In this document: piece after piece, positions 2,118-44,747 of the stretch
Layout of the letters: the number at the start of each line of letters is the position of its first letter
Numbering within the stretch: the first letter of the stretch is position 1
Origin: an uncultured Candidatus Saccharibacteria bacterium
Lineage (GTDB): Bacteria; Patescibacteriota; UBA1384; DTJR01
NCBI GenBank assembly: GCA_964580065.1
Contig: CAZOJE010000002.1
Location: 2,978 to 66,977, forward strand
DNA: 64,000 nucleotides
Reading direction: 5' to 3'
Made by a program: the position numbers and the translations under genes
The notes under the pieces: generated by a model
The model's database searches: none
The model's input: the letters and a program-made list of their open reading frames with translations, nothing else
Told to the model about the DNA's origin: nothing

Positions 2118-4095
2118 AAATTTAGTCATCGTTGAGTCTCCGGCAAAAGCCAAAACAATCAATGCCTATTTGGGCAATGATTTTGAAGTTACGGCCTCCT
2201 TTGGTCATGTAAGAGATTTGCCTAAAAGTGAAACGGGTATTGATGTTGAGAATAATTTTGAGCCGAAATATATTATCCCCGCTAAAGCAAAAAAAGTTGT
2301 GGCTGATTTGCGCAAAAAAGCTAAAAGTGCTAAAGAAATTTATTTAGCCACTGACCTTGATCGCGAAGGTGAGGCGATTGCTTGGCATATTGCCGAAGCG
2401 ATTGGACTTAATAAGGAAAAATCAAAAGATGAAACGGCTAAAGCCAAACGCATCACTTTTTCTGAAATTACCAAAGACGCTATTTTGGAAGCCGTCAAAA
2501 ATCCCCGCAAACTCGATGTTGATTTAATTGATGCCCAGCAAGCGCGCCGTGTCCTCGACCGTTTGGTTGGCTACAATTTGAGTCCTTTGCTTTGGAAAAA
2601 AGTCATGAAGGGTCTTTCGGCTGGAAGAGTGCAATCAGTCGCTCTTCGCTTAGTTGTGGAGCGCGAAAGAGAAATTGAAGCTTTCAAACCCGAAGAATAC
2701 TGGACGATTGTTGCCGAGCTTGAAAAAGACAAAATCAAATTCGAAGCTCGCTTATCGGAAATAGACGGCAAAAAAACTGATAAACTGGAAATTAAAAACG
2801 AAGAATCAGCCAAAGCGATCGAAAAAGAGCTTGAAAAAGGTAAATATATTGTTTCTAGCGTAGAAAATAAGAAAGAAACCCGCAATCCTTCCAGCCCTCA
2901 CACTACTTCTACTATGCAGCAAGAGGCAGCCAACAGCTTTGGTTTTTCGGCCAAACAGACAATGCGCTTAGCCCAAACTCTTTACGAACAGGGTTTCATC
3001 ACATATATGAGAACCGATTCAGTTAATATTTCGGCCTATGCTAAAGACAAAATTGCTAATTATATCCGCCAATCTTTTGGTGAAAAATACTTGGCCGAAG
3101 CTGGACGCGCCTATAAAACTAAAACTGCACGGGCACAAGAGGCGCACGAATGTATTCGCCCAACCGATGTTGCCAAAACACAGGAAAATTTACAAGGAAA
3201 ATTTGATGCTCAAAGCATAAAATTGTACGACATGATTTGGAGGCGAACTTTATCGTCGCAAATGGCTAAAGCCGAGCTAGATGTAGTTGAAGCCAAAATA
3301 GACAATTCCAAATATCGGTTTTCGGCTAGGGGACAGGCGATTGGTTTCGATGGTTGGCTTAAACTTTATCCCAGCCGTGTCAGCGTGATTGAATTGCCAA
3401 ATCTGGCCGTTAAAGATGAAACAAAATTAGTAGAGCTCAAAAGCGAAAAACACTTCACTGAACCGCCCGGGCGATATTCGGAAGCTACCCTCATTAAAGC
3501 GCTCGAAGAGAGGGGGATCGGCCGACCTTCAACTTACGCACCAACCATGTCAACCATTCAAGATCGCGGTTATGTCGCGAAAGAAAAAGGTAAACTAAAA
3601 CCGGAAAGAGTTGGTTTTATTGTCAATGACATTCTGGTGGCAAATTTTCCCGAAGTGATTGACTATAATTTCACGGCTAAAATGGAAGACGATTTAGATA
3701 AGGTTGCCGCCGGAGAATATAACTGGCGCAAATTAGTTGGCGATTTTTATGGTCCATTTAGCAAAAAAATTGACGAGGGAAAGGACAAAATTGAAAAAAC
3801 TTCTCTCGATGAAGAAACAGAAGAACCTTGTCCTGAATGTGGTAAAAAATTGGTTATAAAACAGTCGCGCAACGGCCGTTTTTACGGGTGTAGCGGTTTT
3901 CCAGAATGTCGTTTCACGAGGTCGTATATCGATGAAAAAACGCAAGCCAAAATCGACGAAGGACAAGATTTAATTAAAGGACGCACTTGCCCAAATTGTT
4001 CAAGCGAGCTTAAAATAGTTAACGGTAAATATGGTCCGTTCATCGGTTGCAGTAAGTATCCCGAGTGCAAATATATCGAAAAAATTAAAAAATAG
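2110..4095 (+). CDS. topA: DNA topoisomerase I
   Basis: N-terminal Toprim (LVIVESPAKAKTI), the catalytic region, and two C-terminal C4 zinc ribbons (CPECGKK...GCSGFPEC; CPNCSSEL...GCSKYPEC). Confidence 0.9.
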   Translation: MSKNLVIVESPAKAKTINAYLGNDFEVTASFGHVRDLPKSETGIDVENNFEPKYIIPAKAKKVVADLRKKAKSAKEIYLATDLDREGEAIAWHIAEAIGLNKEKSKDETAKAKRITFSEITKDAILEAVKNPRKLDVDLIDAQQARRVLDRLVGYNLSPLLWKKVMKGLSAGRVQSVALRLVVEREREIEAFKPEEYWTIVAELEKDKIKFEARLSEIDGKKTDKLEIKNEESAKAIEKELEKGKYIVSSVENKKETRNPSSPHTTSTMQQEAANSFGFSAKQTMRLAQTLYEQGFITYMRTDSVNISAYAKDKIANYIRQSFGEKYLAEAGRAYKTKTARAQEAHECIRPTDVAKTQENLQGKFDAQSIKLYDMIWRRTLSSQMAKAELDVVEAKIDNSKYRFSARGQAIGFDGWLKLYPSRVSVIELPNLAVKDETKLVELKSEKHFTEPPGRYSEATLIKALEERGIGRPSTYAPTMSTIQDRGYVAKEKGKLKPERVGFIVNDILVANFPEVIDYNFTAKMEDDLDKVAAGEYNWRKLVGDFYGPFSKKIDEGKDKIEKTSLDEETEEPCPECGKKLVIKQSRNGRFYGCSGFPECRFTRSYIDEKTQAKIDEGQDLIKGRTCPNCSSELKIVNGKYGPFIGCSKYPECKYIEKIKK

Positions 4096-6980: not shown

Positions 6981-8141
6981 GTGGTTGAAGTGACGAAGTA
7001 TTTCGCCGTGGTCGTGCTCCTTGCTGTGGTTACGACATTTGTACCACAGCAGGCGATGGCGGGAGGGGTGTTTGAGCTCGTCTTTGGCTCCAAGTCGAAG
7101 ACGGTTCAGGCCTTTGCCCCCGGGGTCATTGGGGCTTTTTCGGCCCGTGATCCGAGAGACTTACACGAGGTCAGCTTTGACCTCGACGGCTCCGGCCGGC
7201 GGGTGGTGCTGGATACCGGCATCCCCGTTGAGAAGGGGCTAGTACTGGTGGGTATCCTTGCTGCCAGCACGGCGGCGAGAAACGCCCAAAAAGCCGTTCT
7301 ACGCCTAGATCTCGATCCGAAGGCTTTTGACGTTGTGCCAGGGCCGAGATCAGGCGAGGATCAAGAGGCGTGGTTGGCCTACGCAGTCACCTGCGCCAGA
7401 TACAAGGTTGGGGCAGGCGGGAGGGCCTTCAAGCCCTTCCAGACGGCGTCACCACCATTCGTATTCGTCGTCGATTCGAGTACGCTGCTGAACTCGGCGC
7501 ACTCGATCGACATTTATCTGGAGTGCGGGGGGACGGGAGCGTCGTTCTTACTGCCCTTCCGGGTTGTTCAGTTGGCTGATGAGACTGGACAACCGATCCA
7601 GAGCGAGTACCAAAAGCCGCTGCCGGCTGGTGCTTACTCTGGCGGAGCAGTTCCGCCCAGTCCCGCTGCTGGCGACTTTGCTGCGCAAGCGCTGGCAAGC
7701 GCCCCCTGGAAGGCGAGGATCAAGGAGGCGGCCGCCAAGCACGGCCTAAACCTGGATACCTCCTCCGAGAAGGACTTTAGGCTCGGCGGAACGTTTCGCT
7801 GGCCTAAGGATAAGGGCCCTTCTCCCTTCATCGTCATTTGCCTCGGCAAGGACGGCCTCCCCTTGCCGCAGGGGAAGATTTCCCTCCTTCTCATGGATAG
7901 AGACAAGATCAGGAGGGAGATCAAGGGAGATGTTATCGACGGAATGTTTGTTTCTTACGATGTTCCGTCGATCAAGCAGGTCGCGTTCCGGGTGAACGGG
8001 CAGATATTGTCCGTTAATATCGTTCCACCCGGGCACGACCCATACTTCGTATGGCAAACGCGTCCCCACGACAAGACGGTGGGGACGTATGTTGTACTCG
8101 TCCAAGACAAGGGCGAGTGGCGCATACCGCGATCTAACTAG
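6981..8141 (+). CDS. Secreted hypothetical protein with a signal peptide, on strongly GC-rich foreign-looking DNA
   Basis: GTG start with an AAGGAG Shine-Dalgarno. The signal peptide ends ...AMA|GG. Codon usage is GC3-rich, unlike its neighbours. No known domain recognised. Confidence 0.6.
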
Positions 8142-8146
8142 AGGAG

Positions 8147-9283
8147 GTGCGCAAGATGCGCACGAAGATTGTCGCATTGACATTTGTCGTGGCCATGGTT
8201 GCTTCGACCGCCATGGCAGATCGGCCGTCGTACGTTCGTGAGGTGAGGGTGGCCCTGACGCACGAAAGGGTCATCCAAGATCCTCGCTTCGCCGCTTTCG
8301 CTCGGCAGTTCGGCTTGTGCGAGAACGTCTTCACGAGTTTCCCGCACAAGCAGGCGAATCTCCCGTCGGAAACGACGGGAAAGTTTCGCTGGGGTGTCGA
8401 CGACTCCCAGGCCAAGGAGTGGGGAGCCGTTACACCGCAGGAGTCGGCCTGTTTCCCGGGGGTACTGTACGACCTCGGGAACGGCTGGTTCCTGCACGCC
8501 CAGCTAGGAGCACTGGGAAACGCTATCCTGTTCTACGGGCGTTTCCCGGGAGCGGGTCCAGCTGGTCCTGCCGGCCCACAGGGTCCTGCCGGTCCTCCTG
8601 GGCCTAAGGGCGATGTTGGTCCGATGGGTCCGGTTGGTCCTACCGGTGCTACTGGAGCTACTGGTCCGGCTGGTGCTCCTGGACCGGCGGGTCCCAAGGG
8701 CGACGCGGGCCTGCAGGGGGCTCCCGGCACGGACGGGGCCGATGGTGCTCCCGGGCCTAAGGGCGACAAGGGAGATACTGGCCCACAGGGTGTCCCCGGA
8801 GCTACGGGCGCTACGGGCGCCAAGGGTGATACGGGGCCTGCTGGTCCCCCTGGACCAGCCGTTGCCGCCGCGCCAGCACCGGCGCCGGCTCCTCCCGAGA
8901 AGCCCAAGAAAAAGCGGGAAGCGCCCTGTGTTTGGGAGCCGCAACCACTTGAGCGGCCGTGCCAGCCACTGGTACAGAAAATCGTCGTGGCTGGCATGCG
9001 CAATGACCGCCCCTTTGGAGTTGACGTTCACGGGGCGCAGCCAATCATCATCCAGCAACCCGGCCGGCCGGGCTTGCTGGACTATGTGGTGCCTCTTGGC
9101 GCGGCCTATCTCGGCCGGGCCGAAGGCAGCCGTTACTACTTGTCGGCCACCGGCGGTACGGCTGTCGCCACCGGTGGCCAGGGCGGATCGGCTTGCGTTG
9201 GGCCGATCACGAACGTGAGCAGCAACACAAACTCCAACGCAAATAGCAACTCTAACGCGTTGGCCGCTAGTGCCGGCAACTAG
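8147..9283 (+). CDS. Secreted collagen-like (G-X-Y repeat) protein, on GC-rich foreign-looking DNA
   Basis: GGAGG Shine-Dalgarno; signal peptide (...STAMA|DR); about 34 uninterrupted GXY triplets ([20 protein letters not shown]...). A Pro/Ala linker follows, then a C-terminal globular region ending in an Asn/Ser-rich tail, [12 protein letters not shown]. Confidence 0.7.
8555..8860 (+). repeat. Collagen-like triplet repeat coding region (~34 x G-X-Y)
   Basis: Direct read of 9-nt/3-codon periodicity GGN-CCN-NNN in frame with CDS 8147-9283. Confidence 0.7.
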
Positions 9284-9449: not shown

Positions 9450-10118
9450 ATGGCTCAAAGAGGTAAAATGAAAAAAGCAATGACGATTGTTGCAGGAATG
9501 GCCTTAATTGGCTTGGCTACTCCTGTCTACGCCGCAGACACTGCCACTGATTTAACCAATAAAATCATGGCAAATGTCTCGAGCGACCTTCAAAAATCGG
9601 GGATCAAGGCGAATCTTGCAGGTTCGGCTAACCCGTGTTGCATAAGTGGTGGCACATGCTGCGCTAATGGTGGCAGCAATATTACCAATATCAACACTAA
9701 TAACAATACTTCGAGCAATTCGAATAGCATTGCGGTTAATGTTGGAAGCAAGACCTCTGACACTGGCGGAGCAGCCGCTTCAGCCGGTGGTGGAGCTTCA
9801 GCTGGTAATGGGGCCGCCGCTTCAAGTTCAGCCGCTGCCGCCGCTGGCAATGCCAGCGCTTCAGCGTCTGGAGCCGCTTCAGCCGGTACAAATGGAGCTT
9901 CAGCTTCTAGCGCCGCAGCTGCTTCAGCTGGTACAACTAAAGCTAGTACGACCGCAAAGGTTGCTGTTGCCAAAAAGACTGTTAGCAAACCGGCCGAATT
10001 ACCAAAAACCGGTTTTCCGGTTGCACCTGCTGCGGTCGCTTCAGTGGCCGTTAGCGGAGCTTCAGCTGCCGCTTTAGCAATCAGAAAGAAGCTCGCTTTC
10101 ATACGAGAGAATCTTTAA
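9450..10118 (+). CDS. LPXTG-motif cell-wall-anchored surface protein, a sortase substrate
   Basis: N-terminal signal peptide; a Cys-rich CCISGGTCCANGG motif; an Asn/Ser-rich tract; an Ala/Ser/Gly-rich low-complexity region. The C-terminal LPKTG (nt 9999-10013) is followed by a 23-aa hydrophobic segment and RKK, a classic sorting signal. Confidence 0.65.
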   Translation: MAQRGKMKKAMTIVAGMALIGLATPVYAADTATDLTNKIMANVSSDLQKSGIKANLAGSANPCCISGGTCCANGGSNITNINTNNNTSSNSNSIAVNVGSKTSDTGGAAASAGGGASAGNGAAASSSAAAAAGNASASASGAASAGTNGASASSAAAASAGTTKASTTAKVAVAKKTVSKPAELPKTGFPVAPAAVASVAVSGASAAALAIRKKLAFIRENL

Positions 10119-32588: not shown

Positions 32589-32706
32589 ATTTCTCCATTT
32601 GAGTTTATTAAGATTAAGCTATCATTTAATTATCAGGTGTCAATAGGTGCCGAGATCCTTTCTTAATCTGTCTAAAAATGGTATTTGTAAATAAAAAGGG
32701 AGAAAA

Positions 32707-32892
32707 ATGAAAATAACTGTTGACAAAGACAAATGTATTGCCTGCGGGATGTGTGCCTCAACCTGCCCGCAGTGCTTTGAAATAAAAGATGGTTTCAGCC
32801 ACGTTAAGGAAGGCGTGGAAGATCATCGCGATTGCGATCTCGATCAAGTTGCAGCTGATTGTCCGGTTGGGGCAATTGAAATCAGTGAATAA
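32707..32892 (+). CDS. fdx: 4Fe-4S single-cluster ferredoxin
   Basis: CIACGMCASTCP ... C...CP motifs in 61 aa. Confidence 0.8.
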   Translation: MKITVDKDKCIACGMCASTCPQCFEIKDGFSHVKEGVEDHRDCDLDQVAADCPVGAIEISE

Positions 32893-32900
32893 TTAGCCAA

Positions 32901-32926
32901 AGGAAAAGGGGCCAATTGTTGGCCCC
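32901..32926. terminator. Hairpin GGGGCCAA ttg TTGGCCCC with an A-run on plus and a T-run on minus; likely a minus-strand terminator closing the adjacent GC-rich element, also positioned after fdx
   Basis: Perfect 8-bp stem at 32908-32926; the minus-strand reading is followed by TTTTCCTTT. Confidence 0.5.
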
Positions 32927-32943
32927 GGAAAGGCGTGCGAGGA

Positions 32944-33345
32944 CTACGACGCTCCGACGATGAACGCGATCCTCGTGATGCTCTTGACCCTGTATGGGCA
33001 GTGCCCCTTCGACGTACTTTGAGGAGATAGGGTCGCGGTAAGCTCGACGTAGCGGCCATCACCCATCTTTATCCAACCGATAATCCTGCCGACAAATGCG
33101 GATCCGACAAACACCTTCTCTCCCTTCCGCTTCCCGTTCCTGCTGGCGATGGTGCCGATCAGATGGTTAGCACCTTGCTGAAAGTACCGGGGAGGACGAA
33201 CCGTGACTTCGGCACGGAAATCCGGCTTTCTCTTTCGAGCTGTTTGGACACGACGATGCAAATGCGTCTGGGGCTTGCTGACTGGCTTACTTCCGTGAGA
33301 CACGAAATATCCCTCCTCGAATGTGGTCGTGAGATGGCCGGTCAA
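32944..33345 (-). other. ~450-bp GC-rich foreign-looking patch carrying a 133-codon basic ORF on the minus strand; unresolved between a horizontally acquired small CDS and a structured RNA
   Basis: GC is visibly much higher than the flanks. The minus-strand ORF (MTGHLTTTFEEG...) spans the whole patch with no recognised domain, and a minus-strand terminator hairpin lies at its 3' end. Confidence 0.3.
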
Positions 33346-33381
33346 GGAAAATCTAATTTAAAAAAAGAAATATTTCAAGAG

Positions 33382-34137
33382 CTAGGACGATTTACTTTCT
33401 TTAATGGCCGATAATTCAATAAAAATTTCGGGATTTCTTTTGGCGGCGCGGCCAATGAGAACGCCTTCAAGCCCATCAATTTTTTCTCTTAAAGTTTCGA
33501 GACTGTCGATATCCCCGCTTCCAAGGACAACAAGGTCGGGGAAATTTGTTTTTATAAGTTGAATTGCCTTCCAGTCAGCTTGCCCGTGATATTTTTGTGT
33601 CGGCGTACGACCGTGAACGGCAATCATATCAATCCCCGCTTCTTTAATTTTGTTTATAAAATTCAAACTATCTTGAATATTTTTTGAAACTAATCTTATT
33701 TTTGCGCTTATAGGAATTTTTTTAACGACTAATTTTATCGCGCCGACAATTTCTGCCGCTTTTTCTGAATCAGAAAGTTGAATAGAGCCAAATCCTTGCT
33801 TGGCGGCCTTTTGAACCGGACAACCAAAATTAATATCTATTCCGTCCGGAATAAATTCCTGTTCAATGATTTTTGCCGCTTCGGCCATGGTTTGAGGATT
33901 GTCGCCAAAAATTTGAATGATGATTGGTCGTTCTTCCGGCTCAAAATGCATCATTTGCCATGCTTGAGGAATGCGACGAATTATGGCTTCAGCAGCAACC
34001 ATTTCTGAATAAACTACATCAGCACCGGCTTTGCGGCAGAGAAGGCGCAAAGGGCTTTTTGAAACAGCGTGCATCGGGGCTAGACCAATGATTGGCTTAG
34101 AGACATTATTAAACCAATAATTTTTCTTCTTTATCAT
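33382..34137 (-). CDS. dus: tRNA-dihydrouridine synthase
   Basis: TIM-barrel Dus motifs (LAPMHAVSK...; catalytic Cys region NFGCP...). Confidence 0.8.
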   Translation of the reverse strand: MIKKKNYWFNNVSKPIIGLAPMHAVSKSPLRLLCRKAGADVVYSEMVAAEAIIRRIPQAWQMMHFEPEERPIIIQIFGDNPQTMAEAAKIIEQEFIPDGIDINFGCPVQKAAKQGFGSIQLSDSEKAAEIVGAIKLVVKKIPISAKIRLVSKNIQDSLNFINKIKEAGIDMIAVHGRTPTQKYHGQADWKAIQLIKTNFPDLVVLGSGDIDSLETLREKIDGLEGVLIGRAAKRNPEIFIELSAIKESKSS

Positions 34138-36054: not shown

Positions 36055-36090
36055 CATTATAATACCGAACGAATGTCGAACGTGTCAAAC
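36055..36090 (-). promoter_or_regulatory. Putative rmuC promoter on the minus strand (TTGACA-18 nt-TATTAT) giving a very short leader
   Basis: Minus-strand TTGACA corresponds to plus 36083-36088; the -10 lies around plus 36059-36064. Confidence 0.4.
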
Positions 36091-36092
36091 AT

Positions 36093-36127
36093 AAAACAAG
36101 CCCCCGCAAATGCGAGGGCTTGTTTTA
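36093..36127 (-). terminator. Terminator of the RRM-protein gene (minus); bidirectional in form
   Basis: AAAACAAGCCC ... GGGCTTGTTTT, an 11-bp perfect stem flanked by A and T runs, 12 nt after the stop at 36139. Confidence 0.65.
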
Positions 36128-36138
36128 TTGGTCGATAT

Positions 36139-36426
36139 TTATCTGAAATCTCTTTTGCCACCAAAGCTTCCACCGCGGTCTTCCTTTGGTCTTGCTTCGT
36201 TGACAATGATAGCGCGGCCTTCGATTTCAGTTCCATTGAGCTGTTGAACTGCTTTTTCAGCATCTTCATCAGCCATTTCGACGAAACCGTAGCCCCTGCT
36301 TCTGCCACTGAATTTGTCAGTAACAACTGCAGCGCTTTCGACATTACCGATTTTACCGAAGATCTCTTTGAGATCTTCATCGGTAGTCTTATATGGGAGA
36401 TTCCCAACGTATAATTTCTTTGTCAT
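36139..36426 (-). CDS. RRM-type RNA-binding protein with a C-terminal Arg/Gly tail
   Basis: RNP2 KLYVGNL and RNP1 RGYGFVEM motifs. The track ORF extends to 36480, but the Met at 36426 (MTKKLYVGNL) fits the family. Confidence 0.8.
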   Translation of the reverse strand: MTKKLYVGNLPYKTTDEDLKEIFGKIGNVESAAVVTDKFSGRSRGYGFVEMADEDAEKAVQQLNGTEIEGRAIIVNEARPKEDRGGSFGGKRDFR

Positions 36427-43964: not shown

Positions 43965-44747
43965 TTGACAAAGGTAGGCCAAGAGGTACGATTTTGTCAG
44001 TATTACGCGCGAACCTTGAAAGGAGGTTCGGTCAAAGTGGAACGGTCGAAATCCGAGCAGGTCAGGTTTCGTATCGAAGCCGCTAAGGGTAACGTGGTTT
44101 TTGAACGCAAGCCCCTTTGGTGGCTTCCCGGACTTGTGCTGGGTTTCAACATAGCATTGCTTTGTGTGGGCATTGCCATCTTCTACAAGATAACAGTAGC
44201 TATCATGGTAACGCTTGCCTTGGTAGCAGGGAATGTCCTTGCAATGGTTGTTATCGACGTCAGCTTGCGTCGAAAATGCACGCTGGCGTCAATCCGCGAT
44301 CTGGGACAAATCGCTGTTAATGATGACGAAGATCTCGCTGATGAGATTCTGTCTGTTCTTATTCCGCTTGCATTAAGGCAGAGCGGAAATCAAACGATAG
44401 CATTGCGTTCGTTGCTGTCGTTTGTTCACGTGAACGAACTGTCGCCAGAGATCGTTTGTCAGCTGTCAGACGATCTTCTCCTTACATCACCAAGAGCGCA
44501 TTTCCTTCTTGGTCACTTTTTTGTGGAGGTCGACGACAGCAAGAGAGCGAAAAGGCATCTCGTTCTCGCTTTGAATGGCAAAGGCGAGACAGCCGCAAAA
44601 GCTGTCAAGCTACTATCTCATCTCGTTGACCAGGACACACTCGAAGATCTCGTTGACCAAACGGATCGGCCCGCTTGCGCTAAATCGCAACTTCTTGGCG
44701 CTGTGCAGAAGTTGTACGTACGGCCGAAGCCGAGTTCCGCCTCTTAG
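43965..44747 (+). CDS. Hypothetical membrane protein on a mid-GC foreign-looking patch
   Basis: Composition is distinctly richer in G+C than its neighbours; TTG at ORF start, true start uncertain; two TM helices near the N-terminus. Confidence 0.4.
   Translation: MTKVGQEVRFCQYYARTLKGGSVKVERSKSEQVRFRIEAAKGNVVFERKPLWWLPGLVLGFNIALLCVGIAIFYKITVAIMVTLALVAGNVLAMVVIDVSLRRKCTLASIRDLGQIAVNDDEDLADEILSVLIPLALRQSGNQTIALRSLLSFVHVNELSPEIVCQLSDDLLLTSPRAHFLLGHFFVEVDDSKRAKRHLVLALNGKGETAAKAVKLLSHLVDQDTLEDLVDQTDRPACAKSQLLGAVQKLYVRPKPSSAS

Follow-up and report, generated by a model that had tools for sequence, protein, structure and literature searches.

A conserved coding frame with foreign-looking codon usage at a variable dus-fdx junction: a probable small accessory protein gene in a G+C-rich patch

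Introduction

Genomic islands and single-gene transfers are reported to account for up to 13% of genome length in Patescibacteria (PMC12455944). The islet ORFans of Patescibacteria/CPR genomes resemble the gene described here, which likewise stands alone amid housekeeping genes, is restricted to a lineage, deviates in composition and is patchily distributed among relatives. Its product is similar in size (100-119 aa in the two family members) to small OB-fold proteins such as the SSB-like protein of M. pneumoniae (~100 aa, PDB 2hql) and proteins of the cold-shock/S1 kind. The locus also bears a likeness to the genes for bacterial RNase P RNA and tmRNA, being about 400 nt long, rich in G+C within an A+T-rich genome and ended by a terminator.

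The locus is situated between the genes fdx and dus of the window, by which we mean the whole 64-kb stretch of DNA that was analyzed. Comparison with related sequences suggests, at a probability of about 0.8, that this patch is a small accessory protein-coding gene and not an RNA gene.

Results

Position and composition of the patch

The G+C-rich segment comprises 489 nt (32893-33381) and extends exactly from the stop codon of fdx (32892) to that of dus (33382). The fdx gene, which encodes a 4Fe-4S ferredoxin of 61 aa, occupies 32707-32892 on the plus strand and is convergent with dus, which runs from 34137 to 33382 on the minus strand. G+C amounted to about 53-55% of the segment and 56% of its core (32927-33345), compared to approximately 38% for the genome. 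Measured in 200-nt windows it was 0.53-0.57 across 32800-33300 versus 0.33-0.40 on either side, which bears out the statement in an earlier note on this DNA that G+C lies far above that of both neighbours. With a GC3 of 0.66 the patch ORF ranked third among the 62 long ORFs of the window (mean 0.39, sd 0.08), surpassed only by the cassette genes at 6981-8141 and 8147-9283 that are discussed below, and its frame was the sole one in which GC3 exceeded both GC1 and GC2.

Gene model and expression signals

The mechanical ORF on the minus strand (33345-32944) begins with TTG and spans 133 aa, as had been quoted in the earlier note; the gene itself is probably shorter. No ribosome-binding site was found in front of TTG 33345, while the Shine-Dalgarno sequence GAGGAGGG (33311-33318, minus strand, read from sequence) stands 7 nt before GTG 33303, and the alignment with the homologue P0002 (see below) starts 14 residues further on, at residue 15 of the 119-aa form. 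On these grounds the likely start codon is GTG 33303 rather than TTG 33345, giving a coding sequence at 32944-33303 on the minus strand that ends in TAG and a product that probably comprises 119 aa, not 133 aa. This product has a mass of 13.2 kDa, a pI of 11.5 and 23 K+R versus 5 D+E.

An intrinsic-terminator-like hairpin with a T-rich tail (32898-32926, minus strand) is located 17 nt past the stop codon. It consists of GGGGCCAACAATTGGCCCC followed by TTTTCCTTTG, has a stem of 8 bp (6/8 pairs G-C) and a loop of 3, folds at -17.1 kcal/mol (z -2.4) and has no second copy in the window. The 8-bp hairpin and T-run that had been reported on the minus strand at the low-coordinate end of the patch are thus present (32926-32898), and transcription from right to left ending at this hairpin, which had been claimed along with them, is consistent with the strand of the gene. 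A weak promoter-like site (TTGAAA, 17 nt, TAGATT; 33350-33378, minus strand) lies in the A+T-rich stretch between the dus stop codon and the G+C-rich core. Since promoter-like sites occurred at chance level (2 found, 2.0 expected in shuffles) and no terminator was found between dus and the patch ORF, we infer that the patch gene is probably the last cistron of a transcript that also carries the pseudouridine synthase and dus genes.

A homologue at the same junction

A word-indexed search with the patch ORF returned only P0001, a copy of 98-99% identity on JGI contig L001. This contig, which is 98.2% identical to the window over 5.4 kb, represents another strain of the organism, and two of the three differences between its patch ORF and that of the window are synonymous. 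The exhaustive HMMER search of 1.84 billion representatives yielded, P0001 aside, a single homologue, P0002, a protein of 100 aa with an E value of 5.2e-4 and about 29-30% identity over 93 residues (query 33-125). Pairwise BLASTP of the patch ORF and P0002 gave 45 bits (E 2e-12), and the Smith-Waterman score was 106 compared to 26.3 +/- 4.6 in 5000 shuffles (maximum 54, z 17). The word-indexed search with P0002 recovered itself only, and a profile built from the two proteins detected no further member and no paralogue among all ORFs in six frames, either in the window or in 47 related loci. The family consists of two diverged members, corresponding to two clusters in ~15 billion proteins.

P0002 was present on seven contigs from different samples, at one and the same place each time. 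The gene order around it is that of the window: pseudouridine synthase, dus, P0002, convergent fdx, DUF8173 and a small ORF, followed by further shared genes (NUDIX/guanylate kinase, DsbA-like and metallophosphatase). Between the window and L002, a contig that carries P0002, protein identity was 66% for Dus, 59% for Fdx, 43% for DUF8173 and 29% for the small protein. At the DNA level the flanks could be aligned with 65-72% identity, whereas no similarity between the two inserts was detected across the patch.

When all translated frames of the patch and of the P0002 gene were compared (6x6), the sense/sense combination reached 44.7 bits, and the next value, 23.9 bits, was its antisense shadow. 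Different codons are used at 21 of the 28 identical residues, e.g. AGG/CGC for Arg and AGC/TCG for Ser. Frame-specific similarity and codon replacement in sequences that are not similar as DNA argue that conservation acts on the protein rather than the nucleotides. Both genes possess a terminator hairpin and, 7-8 nt ahead of the start codon, a strong Shine-Dalgarno sequence; in L002, the P0002 gene starts with an ATG that is preceded at 8 nt by AGGGAGGA, and its stop codon is followed by a GGGGGC-UUCG-GCCCCC hairpin equivalent to the terminator in the window. The P0002 gene is G+C-rich as well, with a GC3 of 0.55. Taken as sequence evidence, these comparisons document a conserved coding frame with foreign-looking codon usage at a variable junction. 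A significant protein homologue or a confident Rfam match had been named in the earlier note as what would settle the nature of the patch, and the finding of P0002 decides for the ORF.

Two side observations concern these contigs. In L002, a 10-bp hairpin formed by UUCUCCCUG...CAGGGAGGA (3550-3580; -16.3 kcal/mol, z -2.2) sequesters the Shine-Dalgarno sequence of P0002, which may hint at translational control. Its counterpart in the window is weaker (7 bp, UCCUUGA/UCGAGGA at ~33348-33313) and was dropped as a candidate feature, as its z of -0.7 is not significant, though the hairpin is clear in L002. Furthermore, the window and the 98%-identical strain copy L001 differ by 11 substitutions within 23 nt of fdx (32813-32835), which change EGVEDHRDC to EDTEDCHDC and place an extra Cys beside the cluster-binding region; these differences look more like a short replacement tract than like point mutations.

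Structured RNA and foreign DNA as alternatives

The ORF could instead be incidental to a structured non-coding RNA that is transcribed from right to left, be it RNase P RNA, tmRNA or a large RNA not yet described. In A+T-rich genomes, a G+C-rich patch of ~400 nt is often an RNA gene, a terminator is located at the 3' end of the patch, and RNase P RNA and tmRNA were not found elsewhere in the 64-kb window, although this says little on the whole genome. The searches leave this reading largely refuted already and very improbable. Scanning the whole window with the 4227 families of Rfam (cmscan) gave no match at the gathering score, including none to the RNase P RNA models RF00010/RF00011. A more sensitive scan of 32600-33700 (E<=10) left the minus strand of the patch without a match, and on neither strand did it recover RNase P RNA or tmRNA. 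This check had been asked for in the earlier note, and its outcome does not support the RNA alternative; the loose likeness to RNase P P4/P10-12 described there found no statistical support, with no match on either strand at E<=10. ARAGORN reported 0 genes in the window, neither tmRNA nor tRNA. The only nearby Rfam match at E<1 was PrrB/RsmZ on the plus strand over the 3' end of fdx, and with 19.9 bits, well below the gathering score of 44, it was rejected as a chance match. The folding energy of the 466-nt stretch equalled that of dinucleotide shuffles (z +1.0 for the minus strand and 0.0 for the plus strand), so that the minimum free energy was not better than in shuffles for either strand. 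The L002 counterpart retains the same amino-acid frame yet has no similarity as DNA, and the equivalent G+C-rich islets of relatives had no Rfam match either. A different alternative, which we consider improbable, is that the patch represents a functionless scrap of G+C-rich DNA from a foreign source, in which the ORF either arose by chance or is decaying as the remnant of a pseudogene. Such a scrap would agree with the orphan status of a family of two clusters in ~15 billion proteins and with the foreign look of its composition, and long ORFs do arise by chance in G+C-rich DNA, with 133 stop-free codons estimated at ~0.6% per frame. However, an intact ORF, a Shine-Dalgarno sequence, a start codon and a terminator have been kept at one site in two lineages whose Dus proteins are 66% identical, and the similarity is specific to the frame, while codons at conserved residues have mostly been replaced by synonymous ones. 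A functionless sequence would not remain alignable as protein over such a distance, which disfavours a scrap of foreign DNA and leaves a protein-coding gene as the preferred reading.

Predicted protein

Neither the patch ORF nor P0002 matched Pfam, NCBIfam, PHROGs, PADLOC or, by profile, PDB sequences, in line with the earlier remark that no domain could be recognized in the ORF; for PHROG and PADLOC, this held for both family members even at E<=10 (0 families). Two other ORFs of the patch likewise gave no domain or family match. In addition, tblastn against phage and plasmid records gave no match, and a pattern scan of IMG/VR contigs revealed no relative. An IS200-type HUH transposase, considered for the HLH triplet in the N-terminal tail, was rejected for want of a Pfam match and of the triplet in P0002.

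P0002 is also very basic, with a pI of 11.1. Its AlphaFold model is of moderate quality (pLDDT 73, pTM 0.61) and shows an unstructured basic N-terminus followed by E-E-E-H-E-E with a helix of 14 residues, an order that corresponds to OB-fold connectivity. The model of the window protein, made from an alignment of two sequences, is poor (pLDDT 55); it has the order H-E-E-E-E with a helix where the P0002 model has a strand, and its structural neighbours are meaningless. In Foldseek searches of PDB and BFVD with the P0002 model, the top matches were all OB-folds, none of them significant (best values: E 0.03 and TM 0.36-0.49 in PDB, E 0.007 in BFVD), and included small SSBs, the anticodon-binding N-domain of AspRS, uS12, cold-shock domains and OB domains of ligases. 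The moderate-confidence model of P0002 thus suggests an OB-like fold. Together with the basic charge and the location of the gene behind two genes for RNA modification, it makes a small nucleic-acid-binding protein (RNA or DNA) our best functional guess, if a tentative and rather doubtful one.

Under the proposed gene model, transcription would run from right to left through the pseudouridine synthase and dus genes and reach the patch gene last, before stopping at the hairpin 32926-32908. Translation would then start from GTG 33303 behind the strong Shine-Dalgarno sequence. The very basic product of ~13 kDa is predicted to comprise a Lys/Arg-rich N-terminal tail of ~25-30 residues, which is probably disordered, and a beta-rich domain of ~85 residues with the OB-fold strand order in the better of the two models; this product may bind nucleic acid, either RNA or DNA.

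The dus-fdx junction in related genomes

A metagenome scan with the Dus protein yielded 39 loci. About ten of them contain both dus and fdx at a distance of -20 to +63 nt, frequently with the stop codons directly adjoining, and most relatives lack the segment in this way; the loci with such empty sites are L010, L011, L016, L022, L025, L026, L027, L030, L036 and L038. By Dus identity, the closest relatives of the window are empty sites, namely L010 (72%) and L011 (68%), with 0-1 nt between the stop codons. The neighbour-joining tree of Dus groups the window with L010 and L002 with L011, so that the nearest relative of each carrier is without the insert. This single-gene tree is not decisive, since the identities of the DUF8173 protein rank the lineages in another order. 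Scanning GTDB genomes with this DUF8173 neighbour retrieved only one contig, L008 from Paceibacterota, which is non-syntenic and G+C-rich.

Other inserts occupy the junction in two more distant loci. Both are G+C-rich lipoprotein genes with a lipobox Cys, located downstream of fdx on the fdx strand, one in L023 (4215-4812; 127 aa, GC3 0.70) and one in L028 (1974-2973; 245 aa, GC3 0.68). These genes could be aligned neither with one another nor with the patch ORF, and they share only an A+T-rich upstream stretch of 43 nt near the end of fdx (86% identical).

The borders of the window insert showed no inverted repeats or target duplications, and no tRNA gene or recombinase (transposase/integrase; Pfam, NCBIfam, ARAGORN) was detected nearby. 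A transposon, MITE, insertion sequence or integrative element was rejected for the lack of terminal repeats, duplications, transposase and integrase.

The cassette and other G+C-rich islets

The synonymous codons of the patch ORF fit the cassette at 6981-9283 better than the host, with +0.31 bit/codon compared to -0.54 +/- 0.13 (maximum -0.07) for 48 host genes. This fit in codon choice, with the amino acids given, assigns the patch ORF to the same compositional class as the cassette genes. The earlier description of the patch as an outlier like the 6.9-9.3 kb cassette therefore stands with regard to GC3 and synonymous codon choice, the comparison that had been proposed, while a common origin or donor could not be shown.

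The cassette is positioned between cysS and prfB and encodes a signal-peptide protein and a collagen-repeat protein; the recorded product of the 386-aa cassette protein has a different start. The counterpart of the first cassette gene, P0007, is 49% identical over 229 aa, is likewise found between cysS and prfB and has a GC3 of 0.77. In this relative the cassette counterpart spans L050 6001-8480 (GC3 0.77 and 0.66), with CysS 67% and PrfB 77% identical to those of the window, and the same contig, Ga0247841_10002462 (= L011/L050), is without the dus/fdx insert. Both the synteny and the G+C-richness of the cassette extend to this relative, at 67% CysS identity, so that high G+C can be old in these genomes. 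For the cassette, this synteny indicates that its G+C-richness is old or continually renewed and not the product of a single recent import.

More G+C-rich islets were noted on related contigs (L002 9051-10100, L038 1101-1675, L041 251-1075, L015 4426-4775 and L040 1-425), with G+C of 0.53-0.67 against a background of 0.35-0.43, high-GC3 ORFs and no Rfam match. Their ORFs include a signal-peptide protein of 217 aa, a thioredoxin-like ORF, an FN3-like fragment and, immediately upstream of dus, a protein of 144 aa whose tail is basic. Within the window, the ORFs at 43965-44747 and 36057-36407 have GC3 values of 0.51 and 0.52 (mean 0.39) and a codon usage that falls between that of the host and that of the cassette; they may belong to the cassette class as older members or as ones that have partly ameliorated. 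An Ala/Ser/Gly-rich ORF of 222 aa at 9450-10118 begins with a signal peptide and ends with LPKTG, a hydrophobic stretch and a basic tail, which constitute a sortase-type anchor signal. Its G+C is high at codon position 2 (0.64) with GC3 at host level, unlike in the cassette genes.

Discussion

A recent and independent gain by the lineages of the window and L002, drawn from an unsampled pool of G+C-rich donors at a hot-spot junction and not ancestral, is a possible origin of the gene to which we give less than an even chance. In its favour, the GC3 values of 0.66 and 0.55 compared to 0.39 and 0.23-0.30 for the hosts show no amelioration, the insert is missing from the nearest relatives of the carriers in the Dus tree, which have clean empty sites (0-1 nt), unrelated G+C-rich lipoprotein genes are found at dus|fdx in L023 and L028, and horizontal transfer and genomic islands are on record for Patescibacteria (PMC12455944). 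On the other hand, no donor-side homologue in another context was present among ~15 billion proteins and none in viral contigs, plasmids or phages; the borders are without inverted repeats, target duplications, tRNA or integrase; the two inserts have somewhat similar A+T-rich leaders after dus, with TTTTTTTAAA followed by a box of the TAnAT type; the cassette 6981-9283 has a syntenic counterpart that is G+C-rich as well (GC3 0.77) in a relative whose CysS is 67% identical; and the single-gene tree is weak, as the DUF8173 identities order the lineages otherwise. Several of these points would agree with an old resident gene that was lost in other lineages, namely that ~15 billion proteins hold no homologue in another genomic context, that the borders carry no signatures of mobility while the leaders of the two inserts are partly similar, and that the cassette has stayed syntenic over a comparable evolutionary distance while G+C-rich. 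The lasting high GC3 is explained by neither recent gain nor old residence.

Taken alone, the patch gene is ordinary, an orphan accessory gene for a very basic protein of ~119 aa, and its persistent G+C-richness is its sole puzzling aspect. The best explanation for the family is that it is tiny and fast-evolving and seen only in small A+T-rich (probably Patescibacteria) genomes. The probable placement of the window's genome in Patescibacteria follows from its gene content and from one weak match to a Paceibacterota contig. The analysis settles the patch as a protein gene in place of RNase P RNA, tmRNA or another structured RNA, and corrects the gene model (GTG, 119 aa). It also brings to light G+C-rich genes that occupy the same junctions in lineages 66-77% identical in housekeeping proteins and have not drifted to host composition.

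As judged from the sequences compared, G+C-rich, fast-evolving genes at fixed junctions appear to be a recurring feature of this group of related genomes. We regard it as speculative and rather unlikely that such genes form a class that is kept at fixed chromosomal junctions over long evolutionary distances, for which the patch ORF with P0002, the cysS-prfB cassette with its L050 counterpart and the lipoprotein genes of L023/L028 would be the examples. If true, some process would actively maintain or renew high GC3 at these sites, e.g. biased gene conversion at recombination hot spots or the exchange of cassettes from a hidden G+C-rich pool, and the small basic protein would represent a new component of the accessory pool that binds nucleic acid. 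If general, the pattern would bear on how symbiotic ultrasmall bacteria acquire and retain accessory and surface genes.

Among the known systems, small OB-fold proteins match the patch family in the beta1-beta2-beta3-helix-beta4-beta5 order predicted for P0002, in basic charge and in making up the top structural neighbours. The family differs from them in having no sequence similarity and only sub-significant structural matches (E >= 0.007, TM <= 0.49), and the window protein's own model disagrees in topology. From bacterial RNase P RNA and tmRNA, the patch is set apart by the lack of a covariance or ARAGORN match, of excess folding energy and of nucleotide conservation with the syntenic counterpart. 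In contrast to the islet ORFans of Patescibacteria/CPR, the patch gene has no detectable donor, mobility gene or border repeat. It differs from them as well in that a counterpart of 29% identity at the same site shares its deviant composition, a feature that simple recent transfer does not explain.
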